Notes: generated from the sequence alone by a model not told the origin. Counted from the first letter of the stretch, positions 22,828 through 40,686 are shown. The stretch: 64,000 bases of DNA from Melioribacteraceae bacterium (GCA_023230485.1 JALNXG010000007.1:813-64812); one strand, 5' to 3'. Program-made: numbers and translations.

Positions 22828-24066
22828 ATGATACAGAAAAAATTATACCGTGCTTTAGAAAATATTGCTTCCAAACATTTTAAAACTGAAAAAGAATTAT
22901 TGACTGAAATTCTTGAAGAACTTATTAACGATCCGAGAACAGATATTCTTGGTGGAAGAGTGTGGCAATTAAATTCCGTTGATCGTTCATATAAGTTATA
23001 TTTTCAATGTGGAAAAGTTCAGAAAATTCCTAAAGAGTTTGAAGTAAAATTAGATGACTATCCAATATTTTCCCAAATAACAGAAGAAAGAACCGTTCTA
23101 GCTAGTGAAACAAACGAAACTCTTATTTCAAAAGGTATATTTAAGTATTCTGCTTCGGGAGTCGGAATTAAGGTTCGTGTAAATGGACATAAATATTATG
23201 AATATCTTATCGCACTAAATAGTAATGAAATCGGGAAAGATCTAAGATATACATTAAATATTGTAGCTACCGTATTGACTTCTAAATTGCACGAGAGAAA
23301 AATTGCTCAATCACAGCTGCATTTAATTGCTGATTTAGATAAAGCGAAAGAATTACAAAGAAGTATTCTACCTGAGCATGAATATCGATTTCATAATTAC
23401 GATATATTTGGCGTTACTATTCCGGCTGAAATAATTGGCGGGGATTTTTACGATTACTTAAAAATTGGAGAAGAGGAAGATCGTCTTGGTATAGTGGTCG
23501 GTGATGCTGCTTCAAAGGGGATTGCCGCTGCTGCTGAAGCTATGTACATTTCAGGTGCTGTCAGAATGGCTTCTACTTTCCAAATGAAAATATCTCCTAT
23601 GATGAATCGTTTGAATCAACTCATTAATAAAATATTCAGTGATGATAAATTTGCAACAATATTTTATGGTGAATTATCCAACGATAAAAAAGGACTTTTT
23701 CTTTATGCAAATGCAGGACATAATCCACCACTTTTTTATAGTAAATACAAGAATAAATTTTCATATCTTCAACCAACTGGTCCATTAATTGGTCCGGCTC
23801 CAAATTCTAAGTATGAAACTGATAGTATCAATTTTTATAACGGTGATATTCTTGTTATATATACTGATGGTGTTGTAGAATCTGCAAATCATAAATATGA
23901 GTTTTATGAAGAGAAACGTTTAGAAAAAATTATTAAAAAAAATGTGGATAAAACTCCAAAGGAAATTGTAGCATTAATTCTTGATGATGTTTTACGCTTT
24001 TCAACTTCTGAAAGCCAGTATGTCGATGATAAAACTATTGTGGTTATTAAAAGGAAAGATAGATGA
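22828..24066 (+). CDS. PP2C/SpoIIE-family serine phosphatase with an N-terminal sensory (GAF-like?) region
   Basis: 412 aa with PPM/SpoIIE motifs GGDFYDY, VVGDAASKGIAAA, ANAGHNPP and YTDGVVE. The stop overlaps the next ATG (ATGA). Confidence 0.8.
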   Translation: MIQKKLYRALENIASKHFKTEKELLTEILEELINDPRTDILGGRVWQLNSVDRSYKLYFQCGKVQKIPKEFEVKLDDYPIFSQITEERTVLASETNETLISKGIFKYSASGVGIKVRVNGHKYYEYLIALNSNEIGKDLRYTLNIVATVLTSKLHERKIAQSQLHLIADLDKAKELQRSILPEHEYRFHNYDIFGVTIPAEIIGGDFYDYLKIGEEEDRLGIVVGDAASKGIAAAAEAMYISGAVRMASTFQMKISPMMNRLNQLINKIFSDDKFATIFYGELSNDKKGLFLYANAGHNPPLFYSKYKNKFSYLQPTGPLIGPAPNSKYETDSINFYNGDILVIYTDGVVESANHKYEFYEEKRLEKIIKKNVDKTPKEIVALILDDVLRFSTSESQYVDDKTIVVIKRKDR

Positions 24067-25376
24067 GCTTTTCTGAAAAAATATTTAATGCCGGCGTTGT
24101 TGGTGCCGGAGGAGCTGGTTTTCCAACTCATATAAAAGCTAATTCAAAAGTGGAATATGTTTTGGTTAATGGTGCTGAATGCGAACCATTAATCCATAAA
24201 GATGTTGAACTGATGAAAAATTTCCCATCTCAAATACTTGAGGGTGTAAGTGAAATGATGAAGAATACCGATGCAAAAAAGACTTACTTCGGTATTAAAG
24301 CTAAGAATAGCATAGCAATTGAAGAGATTGAAAAACATAATTCAAATAATAGAATAGAAACTTGTTTACTTGGTGATTTTTATCCATCAGGTGATGAATA
24401 TGAATTGGTTTATGCGGCGACAAAAAGATTAATACCACCTCATGGACTACCTTTAGATGTCGGTTGTGTCGTAAATAATGTTGAGACATTTTTTAATATT
24501 TCTAATGCTCTTAAAGATATTCCTGTAACTGAAAAAATTGTTACTGTAACCGGATTAGTAAAAGAACCGAAAACATTTTTTGCTCCTATTGGTACTTCAT
24601 TTAAAGACTTAATTGAATTTGCCGGCGGTGCTATTGCAAATGATTACGCAATATTTGTTAGTGGCATTCTCATGGGTCGCTTAACATTCGATTTAACTGA
24701 AGTAGTAACAAAAACAATTGCCGGAATTATTTTACTTCCGAAAGATCATTATTTAGTTACACGAATGAATCGCCCATTAACAAGTATGAACCGAATAGGG
24801 AAATCAGCTTGCGATCAATGTAGTTATTGCACAGAATTTTGTCCTCGTTACTTACTTGGCTATGACGTTCAGCCGCATAAAGTAATGCGGTCTCTACAAT
24901 TCTCAACAACAGGCGAAGCAGTTTGGAATCAATATGCTGATCTCTGCTGCTCATGCGGATTATGCTCATTATATGCTTGTCCAGAAGACCTTTACCCACG
25001 TGAAGCATGCGATCAAGGTAAAGCGGAATTAAGAAAAAATAATCAGAAATATATCCAGCCTAAACCGGTTAAGGTTCATCCGATTAAAGAGGGAAGAAGA
25101 GTTCCACTTAAACAGTTAATGAAAAGGATGGATGTCTTGAAATACGAACAGAAGACTCCGTTTACCGAAGGGAAACCCGAGCCGAAAATTATAAAGATAT
25201 TTTTGAAACAACATGTAGGTGTACCTGCATCATTGAATGTATTGGTAGGGGATAAAGTTTCAAAAGGGGATTTGGTAGGAAAAATGGATAACGGCAAATT
25301 AGGTGCTAATATACATTCATCAATTGATGGTATTGTAACAAGTGCAAATGATAATTTTATAATAATTGAAAGATAG
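24063..25376 (+). CDS. PduS/RnfC-like flavin Fe-S oxidoreductase
   Basis: 437 aa. Contains the 51K-type motif GVVGAGGAGFPTHIK and Fe-S motifs CDQCSYCTEFCP and CCSCGLCSLYACP. A C-terminal barrel-sandwich-like segment (VGDKVSKGDLVGKM...IHSSIDGIV) follows. The adjacent gene is PduT-like. Confidence 0.75.
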   Translation: MSFSEKIFNAGVVGAGGAGFPTHIKANSKVEYVLVNGAECEPLIHKDVELMKNFPSQILEGVSEMMKNTDAKKTYFGIKAKNSIAIEEIEKHNSNNRIETCLLGDFYPSGDEYELVYAATKRLIPPHGLPLDVGCVVNNVETFFNISNALKDIPVTEKIVTVTGLVKEPKTFFAPIGTSFKDLIEFAGGAIANDYAIFVSGILMGRLTFDLTEVVTKTIAGIILLPKDHYLVTRMNRPLTSMNRIGKSACDQCSYCTEFCPRYLLGYDVQPHKVMRSLQFSTTGEAVWNQYADLCCSCGLCSLYACPEDLYPREACDQGKAELRKNNQKYIQPKPVKVHPIKEGRRVPLKQLMKRMDVLKYEQKTPFTEGKPEPKIIKIFLKQHVGVPASLNVLVGDKVSKGDLVGKMDNGKLGANIHSSIDGIVTSANDNFIIIER

Positions 25377-25385
25377 CAGGCAATT

Positions 25386-25937
25386 ATGGAAATGAATTCA
25401 CTCGGATTAATAGAACTAACAAGTATAGCTGCAGGAATGCAGGCAGCTGATATAATGCTTAAAACCTCACAAGTTGAATTAGTACTTTCTCGAACAATTT
25501 GCTCAGGTAAATATATGGTGCTGATCGGCGGAGATGTAGCAGAAGTGCAAACAGCCGTTGATGCGGCAGTAAATCAAATCGATTTTGCTGTTATTGATAC
25601 ATTCGTTATACCGAATGTACATCCCGATATTTTCCCTGCATTAGCTGGGCATTCAAAAATCGATAAATTAGAGGCACTCGGAATTATCGAATCATTTTCG
25701 GTAGCTTCTTTAATTGAGGGAGCTGATGCAGCAATAAAATCTTCTAATGTAAAAATTATTGAGATTCGACTTGCTATGGCGTTGGGTGGCAAGGCATTTT
25801 GTACTTTAACAGGTGAAGTCGCCGCTGTTACAAGTGCAGTAGAATCAGGCGCTCAATTGATTGCTTCTAAAGGTTTGCTGGTGAATAAAGTAGTCATCGC
25901 TCAACCCCGTCCCGAACTCTTAAGTGAAATGATTTAG
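25386..25937 (+). CDS. Tandem BMC-domain shell protein, PduT-like (BMC-T)
   Basis: 183 aa with two BMC domains (LGLIELTSIAAGMQAAD... and LGIIESFSVASLIEGAD...). TICSGK contains Cys39 (25500-25502), matching the PduT pore [4Fe-4S] ligand context TICPGK as I recall it. Confidence 0.85.
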   Translation: MEMNSLGLIELTSIAAGMQAADIMLKTSQVELVLSRTICSGKYMVLIGGDVAEVQTAVDAAVNQIDFAVIDTFVIPNVHPDIFPALAGHSKIDKLEALGIIESFSVASLIEGADAAIKSSNVKIIEIRLAMALGGKAFCTLTGEVAAVTSAVESGAQLIASKGLLVNKVVIAQPRPELLSEMI

Positions 25938-25952
25938 TAATATTATATTCTT

Positions 25953-26966
25953 ATGCCTATAAATAAAGTTGGAATCGATAGCTATTCGCTTCGAAGTTTG
26001 GAATGCGATCCATTTAAAATGTTAGAATGGGTTAAAGAGAATGGTGGATCAGGAATCCAATTTACTGAGTTACATTTACCTAAAAAGGTAAAACTTGATA
26101 ATCATTTCTTAGAAGAATTGAAATCTTATTCTCAAGAATTAGATCTTTATTTGGAATGGGGAAGTGGTTTTTCATTACCATTCGACTTTAATACTAATCA
26201 TAATAAGAAGATATATAAACATAATCTTAATATTGTAAAACAGGCTTCAATATTAGGTTCGAAAATCGTTAGATGTTCCTCAGGAGGATTATTTAGATTT
26301 AATAAAAAATCAATTCCTTTAGATTATGTTATTTCTGAATCTGTAAAATCTTTTAATCAACAACTACCATTTTTAAGAGAGTATAATGTAACTTTAGCAA
26401 TTGAAACTCATTTTGAGTTAACTACTTTTGAGTTATTAAAGATATTCCAGAATTGTGATTTAGAAACGGGAAAAGAACTTGGAATTTGTCTTGATTCTCT
26501 TAATCTTCTTACTTTAATGGAACATCCGATTTATGCTACAAATAGAATTCTTGATTGGGTAGTTGCTACTCATATTAAAAATGGATTCATTTATTTGCAT
26601 AAATTGGGTTTTAATGTCATACCTTCTGAATTAAATAAAGGTGTTCTAAATTTAGGAAAAATTATTTCTTTATTAGATAAGTCAAAGAATCTAATAAATC
26701 TTTCGATAGAAGGACACGGTGGCGATTTTATCATTCCAATATTTAGTAAAACTAATAGAATTAAACTTCCTGATCTTACAAAGCAGGAATTTATGGAAAT
26801 ATTAAAATTAACTTCTTATTGCATCCTCAATAGAAATAAACTTAATAAATATGAAAGATCAGAATCAGAATGGGGGATTAATTGCTTAATTGAAATGTCA
26901 TCGGATATAAGTTATCTTATTGGATTAGTAGAAAAACTAAAAACTAAAAAATGTCATATGGATTAA
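25953..26966 (+). CDS. Xylose-isomerase-like TIM-barrel protein (sugar phosphate isomerase/epimerase family)
   Basis: 337 aa. Has weak but typical AP_endonuc_2-like features (VRCSSGG, LAIETHFE). The assignment is tentative. Confidence 0.55.
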   Translation: MPINKVGIDSYSLRSLECDPFKMLEWVKENGGSGIQFTELHLPKKVKLDNHFLEELKSYSQELDLYLEWGSGFSLPFDFNTNHNKKIYKHNLNIVKQASILGSKIVRCSSGGLFRFNKKSIPLDYVISESVKSFNQQLPFLREYNVTLAIETHFELTTFELLKIFQNCDLETGKELGICLDSLNLLTLMEHPIYATNRILDWVVATHIKNGFIYLHKLGFNVIPSELNKGVLNLGKIISLLDKSKNLINLSIEGHGGDFIIPIFSKTNRIKLPDLTKQEFMEILKLTSYCILNRNKLNKYERSESEWGINCLIEMSSDISYLIGLVEKLKTKKCHMD

Positions 26967-26968
26967 TA

Positions 26969-29900
26969 TCAACTATCAATTTTATAAACATCTTCTAGGA
27001 TGATTGTCATTAAATCGTCATCACTAAGTGAAAATAATCTTGATACTCTTTCTTCTTGATTGCTGATTGCTTTATACAAAATATTTCGTGCTGTGCGGGC
27101 ATTTCCAAATGACTTATCTTTCTTACTACATATATCATTAAATATATCTAATAGAATCTGAAGTGCCCCTTCATCCAATTTATAACCATTCTTTTCGGCA
27201 AGGTCTGCAACTATGCTAAGTAACTGTCTAGGATTGTAATCTTCAAAAACAAAAATATTATTAAAGCGAGATTCTATTCCCGGATTTGATTCTAATAATA
27301 CTTTCATATCATCAGTATATCCGGCAATTATAACAGCTAATTGACCTCCGCAGTCTTCCATTCTCTTCAAAAGTGTATCAATTGCTTCTTGACCGAAATT
27401 ATCACCGCCTCGAAATAGTGTATAAGCTTCATCAATAAATAGGGTACCACCGAGAGCTTCTTTAATTACCTTATCAGTCTTCGTTGCAGTCTGTCCCTGA
27501 TATCCGGCAACGAGACTTGATCTATCAACTTCTACTAAATGACCTTTTTGAAGAAGTCCAAGCTCTTTAAATATTTTACTAATTAATCGCGCTATCGTTG
27601 TTTTACCTGATCCTGGATTACCCATAAATACACAGTTAAGATTTTTTTCAATTACCTGCAGACCTCTTTCTTTTCTTAATTGTGCTACTTTAAGTCCACT
27701 CATCAATTTGAAAACACCTTGCTTAACATTTTCTAAACCTGTTAACTGACTTAGTTCATCGATATATTTTTGAAGTTCAAGTGGATCGCCTTTTACTTCA
27801 TATTCCTTAGCTTGATTCTCTTTCTTAGAAATTACATCTTGAATATCTTCTAACTCAATCTTATTGATTATCTCATCAGTTCTTTCAGCTTGCACAATAT
27901 CTGCAACTCGTAAAAGTAATTTAGTCTTTGCAGTCTCAATAATATTTCTTGCTATACGTGCGTTACCGAATTTTTTATCTCGATTCCTGTAAATCTCATT
28001 AAAGTGTTTGCTTAATTCTTCTTTAGCTTTTTCTGAGATAGTCTTTTTATCTTTTTCTAATGAAAGAGTAATGATAGTTGATAATTCTTCAGGTGTATAA
28101 TCCTCGAACATAAATGTTTTATTAAAACGAGAAAGCATTCCCGGATTACTATTAATAAAAACATTCATTTCGTCTGTATAACCGGCAGCGATACAAATAA
28201 ATTTACCCCTATCATCTTCCATTCTTTTGAGCAGAATATCGATTGCTTCTTTACCGAAATCATTTTCCCCACCTTCTTTTTTGACTAAAGCATATGCTTC
28301 ATCAATAAAAAGAGTGCCCCCAAAAGATCTATCAATTATTGCACTTGTTTTTTCGGCTGTTTGTCCCACATAACCGGCGACTAAACCTTGCCGATCAGTT
28401 TCTATCAAATGACCCTTTGGTAAAATTCCTAAAGCATTATATATTTTGCTAAAAATGCGTGCAACAGTTGTCTTACCCGTACCCGGATTACCAAGAAATA
28501 GAATATGCGAAATGAATTTTTGAGTTACATCTTCACCTTCTTCAATGAAGTAACGAACTAACTTTACTAAATCATTTATCTCTTTTTTTACAGATGAAAG
28601 TCCAACTAATTTATTTAGTTCCCCTAACGATTCTTTAAGGGCTTCTTCATTGATAGGGAGATGAACTTCACGCGCTTTCTCGCGAGTTATAATCGATTTG
28701 ATATCGTCAATTGTAAATAAATTTATAGAATCAGGAGTTCTTTCAGAATCATCGAGATTTAAAATCCTTTTACTGATTTTTATTTTAGCTTCTTCAAATA
28801 TTTTCCTTACTAATCGAGCATTACCAAATGATTTATCACGTGAACGATATAGATTAATAAATTCTTTTTTTAATAATTCTTTTGCTTCTTCATTAATCTT
28901 ATAATCTTCTTTTTCAATAAGATTATTAAAAATAATTAATAGTTCTTCTGGCGTATAATCTTCAAAAATAAAGGTATGAGTGAAACGTGATTTTAGTCCC
29001 GGATTTGAATTAAGAAATGTTTCCATATCATCTGGATAACCGGCGGCTACTACTGTAAACTCACCTTTTTTATCTTCCATTCTTTTTAGAATAATGTCAA
29101 TCGCTTCTTGACCGAAATCTTGACCGCTCCCTTTTTTTATAAGGGTGTAAGCTTCATCAATAAATAAAACACCGCCCATAGCTTCTGTAATTGCTTTATC
29201 AGTTTTTTGAGCAGTTTCGCCGATATATTGTCCCACTAAAGCTGCACGATCTACTTCTACTACATGCCCTTTTTCAAGAAAACCGAGTGCTCTTAGAATC
29301 TCTCCGATTAATCGTGCAATGGTTGTCTTACCTGTTCCCGGATTACCAATAAATACAGTATTAACAGCGATTTTGTCTTCTGTTTTTAATCCATGTAGTT
29401 TTCGCTGTTTCTGATAATCTAAAAATGTAATAAAATCCTTTATTGAATTTTTTATACTTGCTAATCCGGTATATGAATTGAGTTCTTCTAATAATTCATC
29501 AAGCGTTCTTAATGGGGCAGGGTTTGAGTCTTTTGATTCATTTTTTAGCTCTTCTTTATCTTCAATATCTTTATCCGCTGTCAAGTGTTCATCTTCTTCG
29601 ATAAGGTGATCGCTAATAATGAAATTTCTTTCACAGACCTTGAAATCATTTAAGTAAATTTCTACTCTTGCTTGACCCTTTTTCCATTCGTGTGTTTTAT
29701 CGCTTCCACACGATTGTGCAAAAATGATCGATTCCCATTCTTTCTTAACATTTAATCGAAAATTATTTCTTAATATTTCAAAATCATTCAAGTACCATAC
29801 TGCATAACAATTATATAATAGATCTTTCTTCTTATATGCAGGATTAGTAAGAATGATTTCAGACCCAATTCTATTCGATAATTCATCGAATTGCGAATAA

Positions 29901-30916
29901 TATTTTCGCTCTCCATTATCCTTATCTTTTATTGCATCAAACAATTTAAGAGAAACTACCTCGGCGTATTCATTTGGGTAAATGATAGTTTCTGATTTTA
30001 ATTTTATCTCATCTTTTGGTAGTTCTCTTTTCCCTGATTTTTTAATTCTTTTTTCATCAGTAGAAGAAGAAAAAGTATTTTCAGTAGCCGATTCGCTATT
30101 CTTTGTGCTTTGTTTTTTTATAAGATTATAGATATTAACGAACTCTTTAGTAGCACCTAACTCATCTTTAAGCAATTCTGCTTTCTTAAGAGCGGGCTTT
30201 ATTTGAAATAAATAAAACATCGATTCTAGTTCTTTAACGTGCAATGCTGCTTTTAATTCAGAGGGGAGTTTCACCTTTTGTAATAGTTGTGATATATATA
30301 GTGAATACCAATACTCCTTTTGCTTAATTGCTTCATTAAGTGAAGTGACAATTTCTTTAATTTCAGGTAGGATTAATTTGTTCTTTTTGCCAATAATACT
30401 AATCGCATTTTCAAGAAATGATTTGGTAATATTTAATTTCTCATTCTCGCCATCTTCGAATATTACTGCTAATTCTAATACATTTAATGCTTCTTCAAAC
30501 TTACTCAGACCTGCTAACGCTTTCACTTTAGAGATATAAGTATCTGCTAAATATTTTTTTTCTTCTTCGATTGTTTTATCGATATCGGTAATAGCACCTT
30601 CATAAATGCTCATTCTATTGAGTATGAATGCTCTATAATAACGAGCTTTACGAGTATCGCCTTTAAGCTCTAAAGCAAGATTGGCAAATTCCATTGCCTT
30701 TGCAGGATATCCATTCTCTAATAAAGCAAGCGCATAACAGATTGCAGCATCCGAATCGTCAGGCATCGCATTTATTACTTTTTCAGCATTTGTTAATGCT
30801 AGTCGATATCTTCCATTCCAGAGATGTTCGTATGCTTCTTGTAATAATATATTTATGTTTTCGTTCATCAAAAAGTATTTTTTAGTACCGAATAGTAAGA
30901 AATCAAAAAATATCAA
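26969..30916 (-). CDS. TPR protein with three tandem CbbX/SpoVK-type AAA+ ATPase modules
   Basis: 1315 aa on the ORF track; the ATG at 30868 (MNENINILL) is the more likely start. Modules have Walker A GNPGTGKTT (K530), GNPGTGKTT (K815) and GNPGSGKTT (K1105). Each is followed by LFIDEAY (Walker B) and preceded by an L-x-x-L-x-GL-x-x-VK lead-in. The N-terminal ~260 aa are TPR-like. Residues ~305-440 are an unassigned beta-rich region. Confidence 0.85.
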   Translation of the reverse strand: MIFFDFLLFGTKKYFLMNENINILLQEAYEHLWNGRYRLALTNAEKVINAMPDDSDAAICYALALLENGYPAKAMEFANLALELKGDTRKARYYRAFILNRMSIYEGAITDIDKTIEEEKKYLADTYISKVKALAGLSKFEEALNVLELAVIFEDGENEKLNITKSFLENAISIIGKKNKLILPEIKEIVTSLNEAIKQKEYWYSLYISQLLQKVKLPSELKAALHVKELESMFYLFQIKPALKKAELLKDELGATKEFVNIYNLIKKQSTKNSESATENTFSSSTDEKRIKKSGKRELPKDEIKLKSETIIYPNEYAEVVSLKLFDAIKDKDNGERKYYSQFDELSNRIGSEIILTNPAYKKKDLLYNCYAVWYLNDFEILRNNFRLNVKKEWESIIFAQSCGSDKTHEWKKGQARVEIYLNDFKVCERNFIISDHLIEEDEHLTADKDIEDKEELKNESKDSNPAPLRTLDELLEELNSYTGLASIKNSIKDFITFLDYQKQRKLHGLKTEDKIAVNTVFIGNPGTGKTTIARLIGEILRALGFLEKGHVVEVDRAALVGQYIGETAQKTDKAITEAMGGVLFIDEAYTLIKKGSGQDFGQEAIDIILKRMEDKKGEFTVVAAGYPDDMETFLNSNPGLKSRFTHTFIFEDYTPEELLIIFNNLIEKEDYKINEEAKELLKKEFINLYRSRDKSFGNARLVRKIFEEAKIKISKRILNLDDSERTPDSINLFTIDDIKSIITREKAREVHLPINEEALKESLGELNKLVGLSSVKKEINDLVKLVRYFIEEGEDVTQKFISHILFLGNPGTGKTTVARIFSKIYNALGILPKGHLIETDRQGLVAGYVGQTAEKTSAIIDRSFGGTLFIDEAYALVKKEGGENDFGKEAIDILLKRMEDDRGKFICIAAGYTDEMNVFINSNPGMLSRFNKTFMFEDYTPEELSTIITLSLEKDKKTISEKAKEELSKHFNEIYRNRDKKFGNARIARNIIETAKTKLLLRVADIVQAERTDEIINKIELEDIQDVISKKENQAKEYEVKGDPLELQKYIDELSQLTGLENVKQGVFKLMSGLKVAQLRKERGLQVIEKNLNCVFMGNPGSGKTTIARLISKIFKELGLLQKGHLVEVDRSSLVAGYQGQTATKTDKVIKEALGGTLFIDEAYTLFRGGDNFGQEAIDTLLKRMEDCGGQLAVIIAGYTDDMKVLLESNPGIESRFNNIFVFEDYNPRQLLSIVADLAEKNGYKLDEGALQILLDIFNDICSKKDKSFGNARTARNILYKAISNQEERVSRLFSLSDDDLMTIILEDVYKIDS

Positions 30917-31009: not shown

Positions 31010-31657
31010 ATGAGAACACGAATTTTACTATTGTCGATAATAATGGCGTTTTCTTTATTTGGCTGCCGAATGTGGGGTGTCAGAGGTAATGGAAATGTCA
31101 ATGAAGAAGTTAGAAATGTTTCTAATTTTAAAAAGATCTATGTCGGCGGTGCATTTTCTGTTAAAATACGAATTGCAGAAAAATACAGCTTAAAGATTTC
31201 TGCCGAAGAAAATCTTTTGGGATTAATTCGCACAAGAGTTCGCGGTGATATATTAGATATCGATACTAAAAAAACTCTTTCTCCACGTAAAGAAGTTAAT
31301 ATTTACATCACTACACCCGATTTAAATTATATCAATTGTTCAGGAGCTAACAATGTTTATGTCGAAGGAATAAATTCAGAGTATTTTGAAGTTAATCTTA
31401 GCGGTGCAGGGAATGTTGATCTTACAGGTAAAACAAAAAAGTTTAAAGCCGTTATTTCTGGTGCAGGAAGCTTAGATGCGAAACAACTAAAAGCAGAAGA
31501 AACTAGAATAAAAGTTAGTGGTGCAGCAAGTGCAGATGTCTTTGCATCCAAAAACATTGATGCAGAAGTTTCAGGTGTCGGTTCAATTGATTATTTTGGA
31601 AAACCGGAAAAGATTAGGACAAATGTTTCCGGAGTGGGTTCAATTAATCAAAAATAA
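31010..31657 (+). CDS. Lipoprotein with a DUF2807-like (GIN-domain, beta-helix repeat) fold
   Basis: 215 aa. Lipobox LFGC, followed by repeated SGAGN(V/L)D / SGAAS / SGVGSID strands. Confidence 0.6.
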   Translation: MRTRILLLSIIMAFSLFGCRMWGVRGNGNVNEEVRNVSNFKKIYVGGAFSVKIRIAEKYSLKISAEENLLGLIRTRVRGDILDIDTKKTLSPRKEVNIYITTPDLNYINCSGANNVYVEGINSEYFEVNLSGAGNVDLTGKTKKFKAVISGAGSLDAKQLKAEETRIKVSGAASADVFASKNIDAEVSGVGSIDYFGKPEKIRTNVSGVGSINQK

Positions 31658-34486: not shown

Positions 34487-34978
34487 ATGCACAATCATAT
34501 TTTTGAAAATTACGCTCCCGGAGAGAGAAGCAGTTTAATCGCTCTTTTGCAGGACGTCCAAGAAATTTATGGCTATTTACCTGAAGAAGCATTAAGAGAC
34601 ATTTCAGATTTTATAAAAGTACCTTTAAGCGGTATTTACGGAGTAGCAACTTTCTATAATCAATTCCGCTTGAAACCTTTAGGAAAAAATGTTATTAGAG
34701 TTTGCAGAGGAACTGCATGCCATGTAAAAAATTCTGCGAATATTCTTATGGCTTTAGAGTTGGAATTAGGTGTTAAAGCCGGAGATACTACCAGAGATAA
34801 ACTTTTTACTTTAGAAACAGTGGCATGTATCGGAGCTTGTAGTATTGCACCCGTAGTTAATATCAATCAAGAATATTTCGGAAGAGTTACGGTTAAAGAA
34901 ATTCCTAAAATTCTTAAAAAATATCGTCAAGAAGAAGCATTGAAATCGAAGTCAGAACAATCCGTGAGTGTAGAATGA
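34487..34978 (+). CDS. hydC: NuoE-like [2Fe-2S] subunit of HydABC-type hydrogenase (set 1)
   Basis: 163 aa with the thioredoxin-like [2Fe-2S] motifs CRGTACH and CIGACSIAP. Confidence 0.88.
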   Translation: MHNHIFENYAPGERSSLIALLQDVQEIYGYLPEEALRDISDFIKVPLSGIYGVATFYNQFRLKPLGKNVIRVCRGTACHVKNSANILMALELELGVKAGDTTRDKLFTLETVACIGACSIAPVVNINQEYFGRVTVKEIPKILKKYRQEEALKSKSEQSVSVE

Positions 34979-36960
34979 AAAATTTTATAGAAACCTGCTG
35001 TAATGAATGTTGGCATTCTAATGAAAATCCATGCGAACAGTTTGTGCTTTGCTGCACAGAGGGTCCACTTTGTCATCAGAATCCTGAATGTAAAGAGAAA
35101 TTTCAAAATCTAAATAAAGAACTACTTTATCAAAAACATGATATCCCTGTTATTTTTATCGGCATGGGAACTTGCGGACTTGCATCTGGTGCAGAAAAAG
35201 TTAAAGAAGCAATCGAAGCTGAACTTACAAAATTAAATATAGAAGCTCGAATAGTCCCAACCGGTTGTATCGGTTTTTGTGCTAGAGAAGTGATTGTTGA
35301 TATAAAAATTCCAAATGAAAAAAGAATTGCTTATTGTGAAGTTACACCAAAAGATGTTCCTGAGCTTATCAAAACAGCTATACTTGAAAAGAAAATTCTT
35401 GATAGAAAATTCCTTGGTATTCATGGAGAAGGAGATGTAGGTCATATTTGTATTGATCAAGTCCCGTTTTTCAAACGTCAGCATAAAATTGTTTTAGAAA
35501 AATGCGGTATTATTAATCCTGATTCTATTGATGAATATATTGCAAATGGCGGATTCAAAGCATTAGATAAAGCACTCAGAATAATGACGCCCGAAACTGT
35601 TGTAAAAGAAGTAAAAGATAGTGGACTTAGAGGTAGAGGGGGTGGAGGTTTCCCTACCGGTATGAAATGGGAAATTGCTCTTAAACAAAAAAATAATAAA
35701 AAATATATTATATGTAATGCAGATGAAGGTGATCCCGGTGCATTTATGGATCGTTCAGTTTTAGAGAGCGACCCTTATAAAATGGTCGAAGGTATTATGA
35801 TTGCCGCTTATGCAATTGGTGCTTCTTCGGGTTATGTTTACTGCCGTGCTGAATATCCGTTAGCCATCAAAAGAATATTGAATGCAATAGCTAAATGTAA
35901 AGAATATGGTCTTCTTGGTAATAATATTCTTGGAACAGATTTTTCATTCGAGCTAAAGATAAAAAAAGGTGCTGGTGCATTTGTATGCGGTGAAGAAACT
36001 GCATTAATTGCATCAATCGAAGGCAAGAGAGGAATGCCTAAACCACGTCCTCCTTACCCATCAATTTCAGGTTTATTTAATAAACCAACTGTTATCAATA
36101 ATGTTGAAACATTTGCAAATGTTACATCGATTATTAATAGGGGTGCCGGTTGGTTAAATTCAATCGGTACTAAAGCTAGCAAGGGCACTAAAGTATTCGC
36201 ACTTAGCGGTAACGTTAAATATAGCGGCTTAGTTGAAGTGCCAATGGGCGTTACCTTGCGGGAGGTAGTATTCGATATCGCCGGTGGAATTCCTGATGGA
36301 AAGAATTTCAAGGCAGTTCAAATTGGCGGTCCTTCGGGTGGATGTTTACCTGAATCTGTTATGGACACTGAAATTGATTATGAATCTTTGAAAAGCGTTG
36401 GTGCTATGATGGGGTCTGGCGGATTCGTAATCATGGATGAAGATACTTGTATGGTTGATGTAGCTAAATATTTCTTGAATTTTATTAAAGATGAATCATG
36501 CGGTAAATGCGTCCCATGTAGAGAAGGAACTAAACGTTTATTAGAAATTATTGAAAGAATCCCTACTGCATATTCTGAAAAAACTAATAAACTTGAACAG
36601 CTTCAAAGATTCAAAGGCATTATGCACATGCAAAGATTGGCTGATGTAATTAAAGACACTTCTCTTTGTGGTCTAGGACAGACTGCCCCGAATCCAATTC
36701 TCTCCGGTCTAAGATATTTCAGAGATGAATATGAAGAACATTTATATGAAAGACATTGTAAAGCCGGCGTTTGTAAAGAACTTTTAACCTATACAATTGA
36801 TAATGATATCTGTTCCGGATGTGGACTTTGCGCTAAGAAATGTTCTGTCGAAGCAATTGTAGGCGATAAAAAGATGCCTCATTATATTGTTCAAGAAAAA
36901 TGTATCAAATGCGGAATGTGTGTAGAAACTTGCCGATTTGAAGCTATTACAGTTAATTAA
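34975..36960 (+). CDS. hydB: NuoF-like FMN/NAD(P)H-binding Fe-S subunit (set 1, long form)
   Basis: 661 aa. In order: a Cys-rich leader, a [2Fe-2S] thioredoxin-like domain (GTCGLASG...GCIGFC), GRGGGGFPTGMKW, CNADEGDPGAF, ESCGKCVPCR, and two C-terminal CxxCxxCxxxC motifs. Confidence 0.9.
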   Translation: MKNFIETCCNECWHSNENPCEQFVLCCTEGPLCHQNPECKEKFQNLNKELLYQKHDIPVIFIGMGTCGLASGAEKVKEAIEAELTKLNIEARIVPTGCIGFCAREVIVDIKIPNEKRIAYCEVTPKDVPELIKTAILEKKILDRKFLGIHGEGDVGHICIDQVPFFKRQHKIVLEKCGIINPDSIDEYIANGGFKALDKALRIMTPETVVKEVKDSGLRGRGGGGFPTGMKWEIALKQKNNKKYIICNADEGDPGAFMDRSVLESDPYKMVEGIMIAAYAIGASSGYVYCRAEYPLAIKRILNAIAKCKEYGLLGNNILGTDFSFELKIKKGAGAFVCGEETALIASIEGKRGMPKPRPPYPSISGLFNKPTVINNVETFANVTSIINRGAGWLNSIGTKASKGTKVFALSGNVKYSGLVEVPMGVTLREVVFDIAGGIPDGKNFKAVQIGGPSGGCLPESVMDTEIDYESLKSVGAMMGSGGFVIMDEDTCMVDVAKYFLNFIKDESCGKCVPCREGTKRLLEIIERIPTAYSEKTNKLEQLQRFKGIMHMQRLADVIKDTSLCGLGQTAPNPILSGLRYFRDEYEEHLYERHCKAGVCKELLTYTIDNDICSGCGLCAKKCSVEAIVGDKKMPHYIVQEKCIKCGMCVETCRFEAITVN

Positions 36961-36982
36961 TTTGAAACCGGAGATAGAAAAA

Positions 36983-38713
36983 ATGTTAGAATTAACGATA
37001 AATAATATAAAAGTAAAAGCTGAAGAGGGGATGACGATTTTAGATGCAGCAAAATCAGTCGGTATTAATATTCCCACTTTATGCCATATGAAAGATTTGT
37101 TCCCAACCGGTGCATGTAGAATTTGCGTTGTAGAAGTCGATGGAATGCGCGGTTTAACTCCATCTTGTGCTTATCCGGTTATGGAAGGTATGAAAGTTCA
37201 AACAAATACTCCAAGAGTTAGAATTGCAAGAAAAACTATTGTAGAATTATTAATTGAAAACCATCCACAGGATTGTTTGGTTTGTGTCAGAAATAAAAAT
37301 TGCGAATTACAAGATTTGTCTGAGACCTATAACGTAAGAGAACATAGATACTGCGGCGAGAAAAAAGAACACGCAATTGATATTTCAAGTGCTTCTATGG
37401 AAAGAGATCCTGCTAAATGTATCCTTTGTGGTAGATGTGTTAGAATGTGCGGAGAAATTCAGAAAATCGGTGCTATTGATTTTACAAATAGAGGTTTTTA
37501 TAGCACCGTTACTACTCCATACAATATCGGATTAAACGTAAGTGATTGTATTCTTTGCGGTCAATGCATCCTTGTATGCCCTACTGCTGCTCTTAGAGAG
37601 AAAAGTAGTTCAAAAGAAGTAATGAATGCAATAACGGATAAAAAGAAATTTACCGTTGTTCAAGTAGCTCCTGCTGTTAGAGCATCTATCGGTGAAGAAT
37701 ATAATTTACCTCTTGGAACAAATGCAACCGGACAATTAGTAACAGGATTGAAACGACTTGGATTTGATAAAGTATTCGATACTAACTTTGCAGCCGATCT
37801 TACGATTATGGAAGAAGCATCCGAATTAATTAATAGAGTGAGCAATGGCGGAACATTACCAATGTTTACAAGTTGCTGCCCGGGCTGGGTTAAATATATC
37901 GAACAAAACAGTCCTGAATTACTCCCTCACGTTTCTACGTGTAAATCTCCTCATGAAATGGAAGGCGCAGTTCTAAAAACATACTATGCAAAAAAAATGG
38001 GATTGAAACCGGAAGAAATTTATGTAGTTTCTATAATGCCATGTACAGTTAAGAAATTCGAATCGGGGAGAGCAGAACTTTCTGAAGATAAATTACAGGA
38101 TGTAGATGCAGTTCTTACAACAAGAGAATTAGTACGATTATTCAAAGCTGCTGGAATTGATTTTAATGATCTACCGGAAGATAAATTTGATAATCCGCTT
38201 GGTGATTCTACAGGTGCTGCTGCAATATTCGGTACTTCAGGCGGTGTAATGGAAGCAGCTCTTAGAACTGCTTATTTCAAACTTACAGGAACCGAATTAG
38301 ATAATTTAGCTCTAGAAGATATGCGAGGCAATGATGGATTAAAAGCATCTACTATCGATATAAATGGTCTAGAAGTTAGAGTAGCTGTTGTTAATGGTAT
38401 TGGAAATGTCGGACCGGTTTTAGAAGAGATAAAGAATGGTACTTCTAGATATCATTTTGTAGAAGTTATGGCATGCCCCGGCGGTTGTATTAATGGCGGC
38501 GGGCAACCAATTCATCAAAAACCGGAAAAAGTGAAAAAACGTATTCAAGCTCTATATGAGATTGATTCGAAAATGAAAAATAGACGTTCGCATGAAAATG
38601 AGTCAGTTCAAAAACTATATAAAGAATTTTTAATAGAACCAAATAGTCATGTAGCTCATGAAGTACTACATACTACTTATGTAGATAGAAAAAAGATTCT
38701 AAGTAAAAAATGA
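36983..38713 (+). CDS. hydA: [FeFe]-hydrogenase catalytic subunit (M3-type, set 1)
   Basis: Canonical H-cluster motifs FTSCCPGW, MPCTVKKFE and EVMACPGGCINGGGQP. N-terminal [2Fe-2S], HPQDCLVC and 2x[4Fe-4S] domains. I chose the start at 36983 (GGAGA RBS); the ORF track starts at 36938. Confidence 0.93.
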   Translation: MLELTINNIKVKAEEGMTILDAAKSVGINIPTLCHMKDLFPTGACRICVVEVDGMRGLTPSCAYPVMEGMKVQTNTPRVRIARKTIVELLIENHPQDCLVCVRNKNCELQDLSETYNVREHRYCGEKKEHAIDISSASMERDPAKCILCGRCVRMCGEIQKIGAIDFTNRGFYSTVTTPYNIGLNVSDCILCGQCILVCPTAALREKSSSKEVMNAITDKKKFTVVQVAPAVRASIGEEYNLPLGTNATGQLVTGLKRLGFDKVFDTNFAADLTIMEEASELINRVSNGGTLPMFTSCCPGWVKYIEQNSPELLPHVSTCKSPHEMEGAVLKTYYAKKMGLKPEEIYVVSIMPCTVKKFESGRAELSEDKLQDVDAVLTTRELVRLFKAAGIDFNDLPEDKFDNPLGDSTGAAAIFGTSGGVMEAALRTAYFKLTGTELDNLALEDMRGNDGLKASTIDINGLEVRVAVVNGIGNVGPVLEEIKNGTSRYHFVEVMACPGGCINGGGQPIHQKPEKVKKRIQALYEIDSKMKNRRSHENESVQKLYKEFLIEPNSHVAHEVLHTTYVDRKKILSKK

Positions 38714-40686
38714 CAGGTATTGTAACCACGATACGACAACGATGCAGAAGATGTTATTCCTGCGTCAGAGAATGTCCTGCACAAGCCATTAAGGTAATTA
38801 ATGGTCAAGCAGTGGTAATCGAAGAACGCTGTATCGTGTGTGGGCATTGTGTTACTGTATGTTCACAAAATGCTAAACAAGTAGTAAATGATAAAGAATT
38901 AGTATTGAAACAGATATTGTCAAGCGGAAAGGCAGTAGCTATAATCGCTCCTTCCTTTCCTGTTTCTTTCCCTGATCACCACGAAAAGTTGGTTGGTGGA
39001 TTAAAAGAAATTGGATTTTCTCATGTTTGTGAAACTTCCTTTGGCGCGGATTTAGTTAGTCAGCTTTATCCAAAGTTTATTGAAGCAAACAAAGATAAAA
39101 CAATTATTAGTTCGCCTTGTCCGGCAGTTACAAATTGGATTGAGAAATATTATGTAGATCTCATACCTAATATAGCGACAATTGTATCTCCTATGATTGC
39201 AATGGGGAGATACTTAAAACAAAAATTAGGTGAAAATTATAGTGTTGTCTTTATTGGACCCTGTATTGCTAAGAAGAGTGAATATAAAGATGAAGAAGTG
39301 GCAGGTGATATTGATGCAGTACTGACGTTTGTAGAATTGCATGAGATATTCGAAGAATTAAGAATCGACTTAAATAAGTGTGATGAGATACCATTTGATC
39401 CTCCTTTTGCCAATATGGGTAAAACATATCCATTAACAGGCGGTTTACTTAAATCTTCTGAACTTTCAAATGATATCCTTCAGAATGATATTCTAGTAGT
39501 TGAAGGAAAAAAGAATGTAAAAAAAGTTATTCAGGAAATTAGCAACCAAAAAGTAAAAGCAAAATTTGTCGATATATTGTTTTGTGAAGGTTGCATAAAT
39601 GGACCTGCGGCAGGAAGTGATCTAGATAACTATTCACGCAAAATTAAAGTTGTTGATTACATAAACGAACACATTAATAATGTTGATAAAGCGGTTTGGA
39701 AAAGTGAGATATATAATAGCAGAGATTTGGATCTAACTAGAAGCTTTGATAATAAAAATCAAAGAAGACCTATGCCTTCCGAAGAAGAGATTAAAAAAAT
39801 TCTTGCTCAAACTGAAAAATATTTAGTTACAGATGAACTTAATTGTGGTTCTTGCGGATATCCCACTTGCAGAGAATATGCTATTGCAATTGCTAAAGGA
39901 TTAGCCGAAGAAGATATGTGTCTTCCTTATTTAATTGAAAAACTGGAAGACGCTAATAGAGAATTAAAAGAAACACAAGCACAATTACATAGTGCTGAAA
40001 AGTTAGCTTCTATTGGTCAGCTCGCAGCAGGTGTTGCTCATGAAATAAATAATCCGCTCGGTACAATTATGCTTTATGCTTCTATGATGAAACGTAAAAT
40101 GGAAAAAACTAATTGTTCTGAACAAAATAGCGAAGACCTTCAGTTAATAGTTGAAGAAGCAACTCGTTGTAAGAATATTGTAGCTAATTTATTGAACTTC
40201 GCTCGTCAAGGTAAAATAAAATTATCTACAATTAAATTAAATGATTTGATAACTAATATCGTCTCTGCTATTAAGATTAATCCAGAAAATTCTGATATAA
40301 TTATTAATCTTCACGATAATACAGAAGGTGCTATTATCGAAGGGGATTCAGATCAACTTAAACAAGTATTTCTTAATGTGCTTAATAATTCAGTTGAAGC
40401 TTTAGACGCAAGCTCAATAAAAAATATCACAATAAATATCGATCAAAATGAAGAAAGTATTATAACAAATATTATTGATACAGGTGTAGGTATTCCAGAA
40501 GAGAATATAAATAAACTTTTTACACCCTTCTTCACTACTAAAAAAATGGGTAAAGGTACTGGTTTAGGCTTAGCAATTACTTATGGAATTGTTAAAATGC
40601 ATAAGGGTGATATAACTGTAAAAACGATTTTAGGTAAAGGAAGTGATTTTAAAATCAAATTGCCAAAAATATTAATTAAAAAATAA
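38710..40686 (+). CDS. HydS-like putative sensory [FeFe]-hydrogenase domain fused to a histidine kinase
   Basis: 658 aa. The ATG overlaps the hydA1 stop (ATGA). Two CxxCxxCxxxC motifs sit at the N-terminus. The H-domain is degenerate but Cys-complete (SSPCPAV C137, GPCIAKKSE C185, FCEGC C292/C295). An extra motif C379-x2-C382-x4-C387-x16-C404 follows. The kinase part has the HisKA H-box AHEINNPL (His444) and HATPase_c boxes (DTGVGIP, GTGLGLAI). Confidence 0.85.
   Translation: MTGIVTTIRQRCRRCYSCVRECPAQAIKVINGQAVVIEERCIVCGHCVTVCSQNAKQVVNDKELVLKQILSSGKAVAIIAPSFPVSFPDHHEKLVGGLKEIGFSHVCETSFGADLVSQLYPKFIEANKDKTIISSPCPAVTNWIEKYYVDLIPNIATIVSPMIAMGRYLKQKLGENYSVVFIGPCIAKKSEYKDEEVAGDIDAVLTFVELHEIFEELRIDLNKCDEIPFDPPFANMGKTYPLTGGLLKSSELSNDILQNDILVVEGKKNVKKVIQEISNQKVKAKFVDILFCEGCINGPAAGSDLDNYSRKIKVVDYINEHINNVDKAVWKSEIYNSRDLDLTRSFDNKNQRRPMPSEEEIKKILAQTEKYLVTDELNCGSCGYPTCREYAIAIAKGLAEEDMCLPYLIEKLEDANRELKETQAQLHSAEKLASIGQLAAGVAHEINNPLGTIMLYASMMKRKMEKTNCSEQNSEDLQLIVEEATRCKNIVANLLNFARQGKIKLSTIKLNDLITNIVSAIKINPENSDIIINLHDNTEGAIIEGDSDQLKQVFLNVLNNSVEALDASSIKNITINIDQNEESIITNIIDTGVGIPEENINKLFTPFFTTKKMGKGTGLGLAITYGIVKMHKGDITVKTILGKGSDFKIKLPKILIKK

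Follow-up and report, generated by a model that had tools for sequence, protein, structure and literature searches.

The window analysed here, a 64,000-nucleotide stretch from the genome of a Melioribacteraceae bacterium (GCA_023230485.1, JALNXG010000007.1:813-64812), contains on its minus strand a gene for a large protein in which a tetratricopeptide repeat (TPR) solenoid and a beta-sandwich domain precede three tandem AAA+ modules belonging to the SpoVK-EccA-like clade. The protein is real and is conserved across the bacterial family to which the genome belongs. As to its function, the way in which catalytic residues are kept or lost among the orthologues tilts the balance of probability slightly towards a machine in which the N-terminal head would recruit a client protein and six chains would assemble into three stacked rings, able to pull on the client by using ATP; this is the explanation that best fits the whole of the data.

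A conserved chain with three intact AAA+ modules

The longest open reading frame (ORF), 26969..30916 on the minus strand, starts with TTG and encodes 1315 amino acids (aa), its stop codon being located at 26969-26971. The original prediction, made from the sequence alone, had described this single ORF, which was confirmed; the protein itself, however, is most likely 1299 aa long and begins at an in-frame ATG at 30868, because an identical database record (P0002) has this length and all orthologues align from that methionine. Residues are numbered here starting from this ATG.

A search with residues 1-500 detected more than 120 full-length orthologues, approximately 1290-1330 aa in length and 35-84% identical in the head. 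Those with a taxon name are almost all from Ignavibacteriota (Melioribacteraceae, Ignavibacteriales, Rosettibacter, Melioribacter). Within a sample of 151 genomes, spread evenly over the class, a full-length orthologue was found in all 12 genomes from the family of the window, in 3 of the 4 from two other families of its order, and in none of those from other orders. The gene is the SpoVK-EccA-like clade's single member in the window's genome. Cultured relatives, Melioribacter sp. and Rosettibacter firmus, carry orthologues, which makes bench work feasible. The last residues of the protein are not conserved in the orthologue consensus, and no C-terminal tail was found that is comparable to the one, of ClpP-docking-like type, reported in the Bacteroidota relatives.

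The gene contains internal repeats at a period of 855-870 nt, and an expanded or collapsed repeat might have produced a false three-module frame, as the original prediction had warned; such an artefact is very unlikely, to the point of being negligible, since an architecture of 1290-1330 aa with position-specific module orthology recurs in more than 120 independent assemblies and since the pairwise identity of the modules, a measure suggested in the same prediction, is only 48-49% in protein and 65-72% in DNA over the best 223 nt, too low for a repeat collapse or expansion to be likely.

Pfam searches revealed three copies each of the AAA (PF00004) and AAA_lid_6 (PF17866) domains, and the NCBIfam models for SpoVK, EccA and CbbX matched three stretches each. 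Three complete modules had been predicted at positions differing by no more than about 35 nt from the borders defined by hidden Markov models (HMMs). Every module contains GNPG[TS]GKTT, LFIDEAY, the GY of sensor 1, NPGxxSRF and FGNAR. Among the motifs originally listed, Walker A, Walker B and FGNAR were found as described, while the lead-in of module 1 reads GL-AS-IK and does not end in -VK, and the residue preceding FGNAR is S, K and S in the three modules, not K/R throughout.

The catalytic residues of module 1 are K514 (Walker A), D571/E572 (Walker B), GY611 (sensor 1), R628 (arginine finger) and R685 (sensor 2), with the pore-loop tyrosine at Y548. The corresponding positions are K799, D856/E857, Y897, R914, R971 and pore Y833 in module 2, and K1089, D1146/E1147, Y1184, R1201, R1258 and pore Y1123 in module 3, which is intact in the window protein. 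The pore loops read YIG, YVG and YQG in modules 1-3, with a tyrosine of the CbbX type. As had been proposed, all three modules look active, each having the Walker A lysine, the Walker B Asp-Glu pair, the arginine finger and the sensor-2 arginine.

Comparison to solved structures matched module 1 to CbbX (3ZUH/3SYL) with an expectation value (E) of 1e-57 and approximately 50% identity over the full length, and to EccA1 with an E of 1.7e-45. The modelled modules superpose on CbbX with template modelling (TM) scores of 0.74-0.77; the tyrosine of each module aligns with CbbX Y114 and the arginine of SRF with CbbX R194, which we take to be the pore-loop tyrosine and the arginine finger, respectively.

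Among the classical AAA+ proteins, the SpoVK-EccA-like clade has FtsH as its sister. Its signatures are described as a GY in sensor 1, an Asn before the arginine finger, a sensor-2 arginine that is kept, unlike in FtsH, and a two-helix hairpin upstream of Walker A (PMC11513918). Sensor 1 reads AAGY, AAGY and IAGY in modules 1-3 and its GY does not vary across 94 orthologues in modules 1 and 2. The Asn is provided by the NPGxxSRF of all modules, aligned with NPGFRSR of CbbX (N188...R194); it is six residues away from the SRF arginine, as in CbbX, the published wording being '4 residues upstream' (PMC11513918). The sensor-2 arginine is contained within the FGNAR of all three modules, and in the AlphaFold2 model of each a pair of helices precedes strand 1 and Walker A (in module 1, H17-26 and H31-52 before E65-69).

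Scores against the curated family models remained below the cut-offs for each module: 251-279 bits for SpoVK (TIGR02881, cut-off 423), 238, 197 and 199 bits for CbbX (TIGR02880, cut-off 459) and approximately 224-228 bits for EccA (TIGR03922, cut-off 467). The whole-protein CbbX score of 618 bits is a sum over the three modules. In addition, a search of the window's genome (93% complete) detected neither the Rubisco large subunit (PF00016, with positive controls matched) nor a WXG100 gene. The assignment to the clade of CbbX, SpoVK and EccA, already made in the original prediction, is thus borne out by model scores, matches to CbbX and EccA1 and signatures; since the cut-offs were missed and neither Rubisco nor WXG100 was found, the protein is a member of the clade and not itself CbbX, EccA or SpoVK.

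The head was modelled by using AlphaFold2 on residues 1-456, with a 94-sequence alignment, and the model has a mean predicted local distance difference test score (pLDDT) of 87.6. All of the elements predicted for this part (a TPR-like region, a Ser/Lys-rich linker, a beta-rich region and an acidic linker) were recovered: 13 helices between residues 2 and 263, with pLDDT mostly above 90, are followed by a disordered Ser/Lys-rich segment (264-287), an eight-stranded beta-sandwich (294-419) and a disordered acidic segment (429-448). Foldseek comparison of the helical part against PDB retrieved OGT-TPR, consensus TPR proteins, MamA, PilF and P58IPK, and a Pfam ANAPC3/TPR match is present near the N-terminus (1.2e-8). 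An EccA-like identity of the TPR head was also considered and rejected: by sequence, PDB matches were generic TPR ones, with none to the EccA1 N-domain, and the EccA N-domain model PF21545 scored 20.6 bits, below its cut-off of 27.

For the sandwich, nothing significant was found in Pfam, by scanning 62 members, or in PDB, by profile search. Structure comparison by Foldseek matched it to UNC119, an Ig-like lipid-binding protein (TM 0.43-0.48 on the target, E approximately 5e-5), and to the Ig-like part of AlkC. A profile built on 62 copies was searched against 1.84 billion cluster representatives and matched 1757 clusters at E <=0.001 and 881 at E <=1e-10. The beta-rich region of the head thus represents a single copy of a very widespread family of domains (proteins P0122-P0271 among its members), usually found in tandem copies, for which there is no Pfam model. 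AAA+ modules are present in only 27 of the best 150 matches. The others of these 150 are small proteins with two or three copies, or fusions to caspase (Peptidase_C14), Effector-associated domain 11 (EAD11), ankyrin repeats, BamB-like propellers, bacterial Ig domains or a type IX secretion system (T9SS) sorting tail. The sandwich is read as a general binding module. As a by-product, a widespread domain not catalogued in family libraries, also joined to caspases and to an effector-associated domain, was defined.

Multi-module relatives and decay of single modules

A scan of one genome per species yielded at least 575 related stretches, and modules were counted in the best 80 loci. Two modules were found in proteins of Saprospiraceae and Chitinophagales that contain beta domains, and in Streptomyces, Nocardiopsis, Actinomadura and others; three modules in Ignavibacteria, in Lysinibacillus composti, in an Acetobacterium and in a 2117-aa protein of Eubacteriales; one weak and three further modules in chains of approximately 1110 aa from Prevotella and other Bacteroidales. 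Seven modules, in the order weak, five strong, weak, are contained within a 1939-aa protein encoded by one ORF of a Bacteroidales metagenome-assembled genome (L006:7920-13736, plus strand). Two Ignavibacterial genomes encode, in addition, paralogues of 1395 aa (about five modules) and 1712 aa (about six modules). Chains bearing two to seven such modules are widespread in databases, and the multi-module architecture is not rare.

In full-text literature, no paper was found on any tandem or multi-module member of the clade, in agreement with the original prediction, which knew of no characterised triple-module member. The closest published treatment is the description of the clade itself (PMC11513918).

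A side observation concerns the Bacteroidales chains of approximately 1110 aa (loci L005-L009, L014, L054, L056 and L060-L062), which consist of one degenerate N-terminal module and three intact ones. Their genes are part of a conserved same-strand cluster, together with genes for a 1355-aa Ser/Thr kinase with SH3 domains, a zinc-ribbon protein, an FHA/zinc-ribbon protein and a PP2C phosphatase. From its content, the cluster seems to link an AAA+ protein with several motors to phospho-signalling.

A tree of single modules revealed that the Firmicutes, actinobacterial and Prevotella chains derive from their own, separate duplications. The Ignavibacterial modules 1 and 2, in turn, each cluster with the module of like position in the two-module proteins with beta domains (support 99 each), while module 3 forms a clade of its own (support 100). 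Given this position-specific grouping, the window protein corresponds to a two-module beta-domain protein with a TPR region added in front and a third module added behind, or else the short forms have lost both. These shorter relatives, of approximately 870-930 aa, are found in Bacteroidota, Chlorobiota and another Ignavibacterial family; they share the sandwich and modules 1 and 2 with the window protein, but the sandwich is duplicated in tandem at their N-terminus and both the TPR solenoid and the third module are missing.

Decay of the modules was evaluated in the 94 orthologues of alignment A3, by taking into account the Walker A lysine, the Walker B Asp-Glu pair, the sensor-1 tyrosine, the arginine finger and the sensor-2 arginine. 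Modules 1 and 2 keep all catalytic residues in 94/94 sequences. Module 3 is intact in 38/94, including the window protein, and degenerate in the other 56, where Walker B, sensor 1, the arginine finger or sensor 2 are lost, usually several together. The arginine finger is missing from 49 of these 56 sequences; the Walker A lysine is kept in 54 and the pore tyrosine in 53. On an orthologue tree built without the module 3 columns, the state of module 3 changes at least three to four times. The pattern is carried further by two more distant relatives. In L123 (genome G015) module 2 is dead, having lost its arginine finger along with Walker B and sensor 1, and modules 1 and 3 on either side of it are intact; in L124 (genome G137) modules 2 and 3 are both dead and module 1 is fully intact, arginine finger included. 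These natural variants are suited to asking what the role of each tier is.

Ring arrangement, mechanism and alternative roles

In AAA+ rings each subunit contributes its arginine finger to the ATP site of its neighbour. For this reason an intact module 1, as in L124, must have a further module 1 next to it. If the ring were of mixed composition, loss of the module 3 finger would disable module 1 or 2, and the fingers facing dead sites would be free to decay; neither is seen, which argues for each module type sitting beside its own copies. The residues acting in cis and the finger acting in trans decay together within one and the same module, and this suggests, as far as residue patterns go, that stacked rings of a single module type fit better than a pseudo-hexamer formed by two chains. 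Both arrangements had been put forward in the original prediction. The three stacked tiers fit the data better, L124 retaining only module 1 intact; the pseudo-hexamer appears to be the less likely option, since a module loses its cis motifs along with its own finger while its neighbours remain untouched.

In the dimeric arrangement the three modules of a chain would occupy neighbouring positions of one ring and two chains would close it, as in dynein or midasin. It has some appeal: three modules per chain divide evenly into six, the flexible linkers of 13-15 residues connecting each lid to the next module could span to a ring neighbour, and the two-module relatives could analogously form trimers. 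However, the invariance of the sites and fingers of modules 1 and 2, alongside the frequent loss of the module 3 finger, speaks against such a mixed ring, in which, moreover, the sole intact site of L124 would get no finger from its neighbour. Nor are the module counts found in relatives (four, about five, about six and seven) confined to divisors of six. We consider this arrangement unlikely.

An argument in favour of a single ring, based on divisors of six and drawn from chains with 2, 3 and 1+6 modules, was dropped after the fuller count of 2, 3, 4, ~5, ~6 and 7.

According to the stacked-ring explanation, to which we lean by a small measure, the TPR solenoid and the Ig-like sandwich, tethered by two flexible linkers, would recruit a specific client protein. 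Six chains would assemble into a complex of approximately 0.9 MDa, as estimated from chain length; each module type would form its own six-membered ring, and the three rings, stacked on one another, would enclose a single long central channel. Hydrolysis of ATP would then pull a tail or a loop of the client, in the way CbbX pulls the Rubisco large subunit by its C-terminal tail. Module 1, beside the head, would be the obligatory motor, and module 2 would be nearly always active. Module 3, active-looking here, would form in most relatives a ring that binds ATP without hydrolysing it, comparable to NSF-D2. A broader picture, which we advance tentatively and hold to be somewhat less than an even prospect, is that of a three-tiered threading machine under a TPR/sandwich crown, in which relatives with four to seven modules would be taller tubes, the tier by the head being the obligatory motor and the lower ones having been switched between active and structural states in evolution.

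Known systems share parts of this scheme. CbbX, the red-type Rubisco activase (3SYL, 3SYK, 3ZUH; TIGR02880), is the best solved relative of each module and has in common with it Walker A and B, the sensor-1 GY, the NPGxxSR finger motif, a GNAR-type sensor 2 and the position of the pore-loop tyrosine; its tail-pulling action is probably common to the window protein. It differs in having one module per chain and neither TPR nor beta-sandwich, and its client is red-type form I Rubisco, whose large subunit was not found in the window's genome. EccA, the AAA+ ATPase of type VII secretion (TIGR03922; EccA1, PDB 9LUR), joins an N-terminal TPR head to a module of the same clade, like the window protein, but has one AAA+ module as opposed to three; as to its type VII secretion context, no WXG100 gene was found in the window's genome. 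Both EccA, with its narrow client set, and SpoVK of Bacillus subtilis, which promotes MurG function, are regarded as dedicated chaperones (PMC11513918). SpoVK is the best-scoring NCBIfam model for each module, in keeping with a common clade, even if still below cut-off; it consists, however, of a single module with a short N-terminal domain and is confined to sporulating Bacillota, whereas the window protein, judging from the names of its close homologues, is from Ignavibacteriota.

Stacked rings around a common channel, each made of a single module type, are formed by ClpB, p97/Cdc48, NSF and Pex1/Pex6. In these machines one tier is often hydrolysis-dead yet still binds nucleotide, as in NSF-D2 and Pex1/6-D1. 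Like them, the window protein carries tandem modules in one chain, although its stacking is only inferred, and the dead tier has a parallel in the degenerate module 3 of most orthologues. They belong to other AAA+ subfamilies and have two tiers, not three.

Several points weigh against the stacked-ring explanation. The AlphaFold2 model of the three modules has a predicted TM score (pTM) of 0.38 and leaves their mutual arrangement undefined; compared by Foldseek to AAA+ chains with two tiers, it gave TM scores of about 0.3 and root mean square deviations of 15-20 Å, with no superposition. We know of no solved three-tier classical AAA+ assembly, and relatives with four, five to six or seven modules would imply implausibly tall stacks, if the same rule holds for them. 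The fusions of the sandwich family to caspase and EAD11 point towards conflict systems and away from housekeeping chaperoning. Moreover, the sole conserved neighbour of the gene encodes an exported lipoprotein and is divergently transcribed, and its conservation may be plain synteny.

This neighbour is a DUF2807 lipoprotein gene, the only well-conserved one next to the orthologues. Of the 19 tabulated orthologue rows, 15 have it next to the orthologue in divergent orientation, which corresponds to 14 of 18 distinct loci, rows L004 and L122 being one locus. It might point to an EccA-like envelope or secretion chaperone, whose client, handled before export, would be the DUF2807 lipoprotein or another exported protein; the clients of EccA and SpoVK do belong to secretion and envelope synthesis (PMC11513918). 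This role seems to us improbable. The two genes form a divergent pair and not an operon, purE is conserved on the same side of the gene, as expected if the linkage were plain synteny, and no DUF2807 gene was found beside distant relatives, including the two-module proteins sharing modules 1 and 2 and the beta domain. The WXG100 gene, too, was not found in the genome.

A role as the nucleoside triphosphatase core of a conflict or defence system, where TPR and sandwich would detect invaders or signals of damage and an effector response would be powered by the AAA+ modules, is consistent with the sandwich fusions to caspase (Peptidase_C14) and Effector-associated domain 11, and with weak PADLOC matches to IetA, which amount to 79 bits when summed over three stretches. 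NCBIfam IteA, however, scored 59 bits against a cut-off of 510, the gene has a single copy and was found in all sampled genomes of the family, its site is syntenic, next to purE and purK, and not a variable island, and no protease gene (the partner of IetA being the protease IetS), effector or nuclease gene is adjacent to it. A defence function is accordingly judged quite improbable.

Whichever function the head may serve, a whole bacterial family keeps a three-motor chain, and relatives carry up to seven motors. If the stacked-ring explanation is true, the protein would be the first example of an AAA+ machine exceeding two tiers, such assemblies being undescribed for any AAA+ family. The orthologues would then form a natural series in which lower tiers were repeatedly turned non-hydrolysing, useful for asking what extra tiers do.

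Coordinates and genomic surroundings

The features of the locus are reported in the table below, together with the evidence for each of them.

Features of the AAA+ gene and its divergent neighbour. Positions are counted from the first letter of the window; residues are those of the protein starting at the probable ATG.
Feature	Position	Strand	Evidence
TPR / beta-sandwich / triple AAA+ coding sequence, from the most likely start	26969..30868	-	ORF; record P0002; >120 orthologues aligned from Met
TPR-like helical solenoid, residues 1-263, 13 helices	30080..30868	-	AlphaFold2; Foldseek; Pfam ANAPC3
Disordered Ser/Lys-rich linker, residues 264-287	30008..30079	-	pLDDT <50; columns unconserved among orthologues
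Beta-sandwich domain, residues 288-428 (strands 294-419)	29585..30007	-	AlphaFold2, pLDDT >90; Foldseek
Acidic linker, residues 429-454	29507..29584	-	pLDDT <50 over residues 429-448
AAA+ module 1, residues 455-740	28649..29506	-	Purpose-built HMM; motifs; CbbX match
AAA+ module 2, residues 742-1026	27791..28645	-	Purpose-built HMM; motifs
AAA+ module 3, residues 1031-1299	26972..27778	-	Purpose-built HMM; motifs
DUF2807 (GIN-domain) lipoprotein gene, lipobox LFGC	31010..31657	+	Pfam PF10988 at 9e-36; divergent from AAA+ gene

Downstream, a xylose-isomerase-like TIM-barrel gene (PF01261) is convergent with the AAA+ gene and ends at 26966, leaving a gap of 2 nt. Since the upstream gene is divergent, the AAA+ gene is monocistronic. 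The orientation of both neighbours agrees with the original prediction of a gene standing alone and convergent with the TIM-barrel one.

ABC-F and PF16949 genes, located downstream of the orthologue in eight loci, were considered as obligatory operon partners and ruled out: no PF16949 gene was found in the window's genome, and the gene is flanked convergently here.

Two further groups of genes were noticed in the window, both on the plus strand. The first, at 22828-25937, comprises a gene for a SpoIIE-type PP2C phosphatase, followed by those for a PduS/RnfC-like flavin Fe-S protein and for a tandem-BMC shell protein; the surroundings contain no further microcompartment genes. The second, at 34487-40686, contains NuoE-like and NuoF-like genes and an [FeFe]-hydrogenase-like gene, followed by a gene for a 658-aa protein, in whose translation an Fe-S/hydrogenase-like N-terminal part and a histidine-kinase C-terminal part were recognised by eye; this cluster is possibly a sensory hydrogenase.

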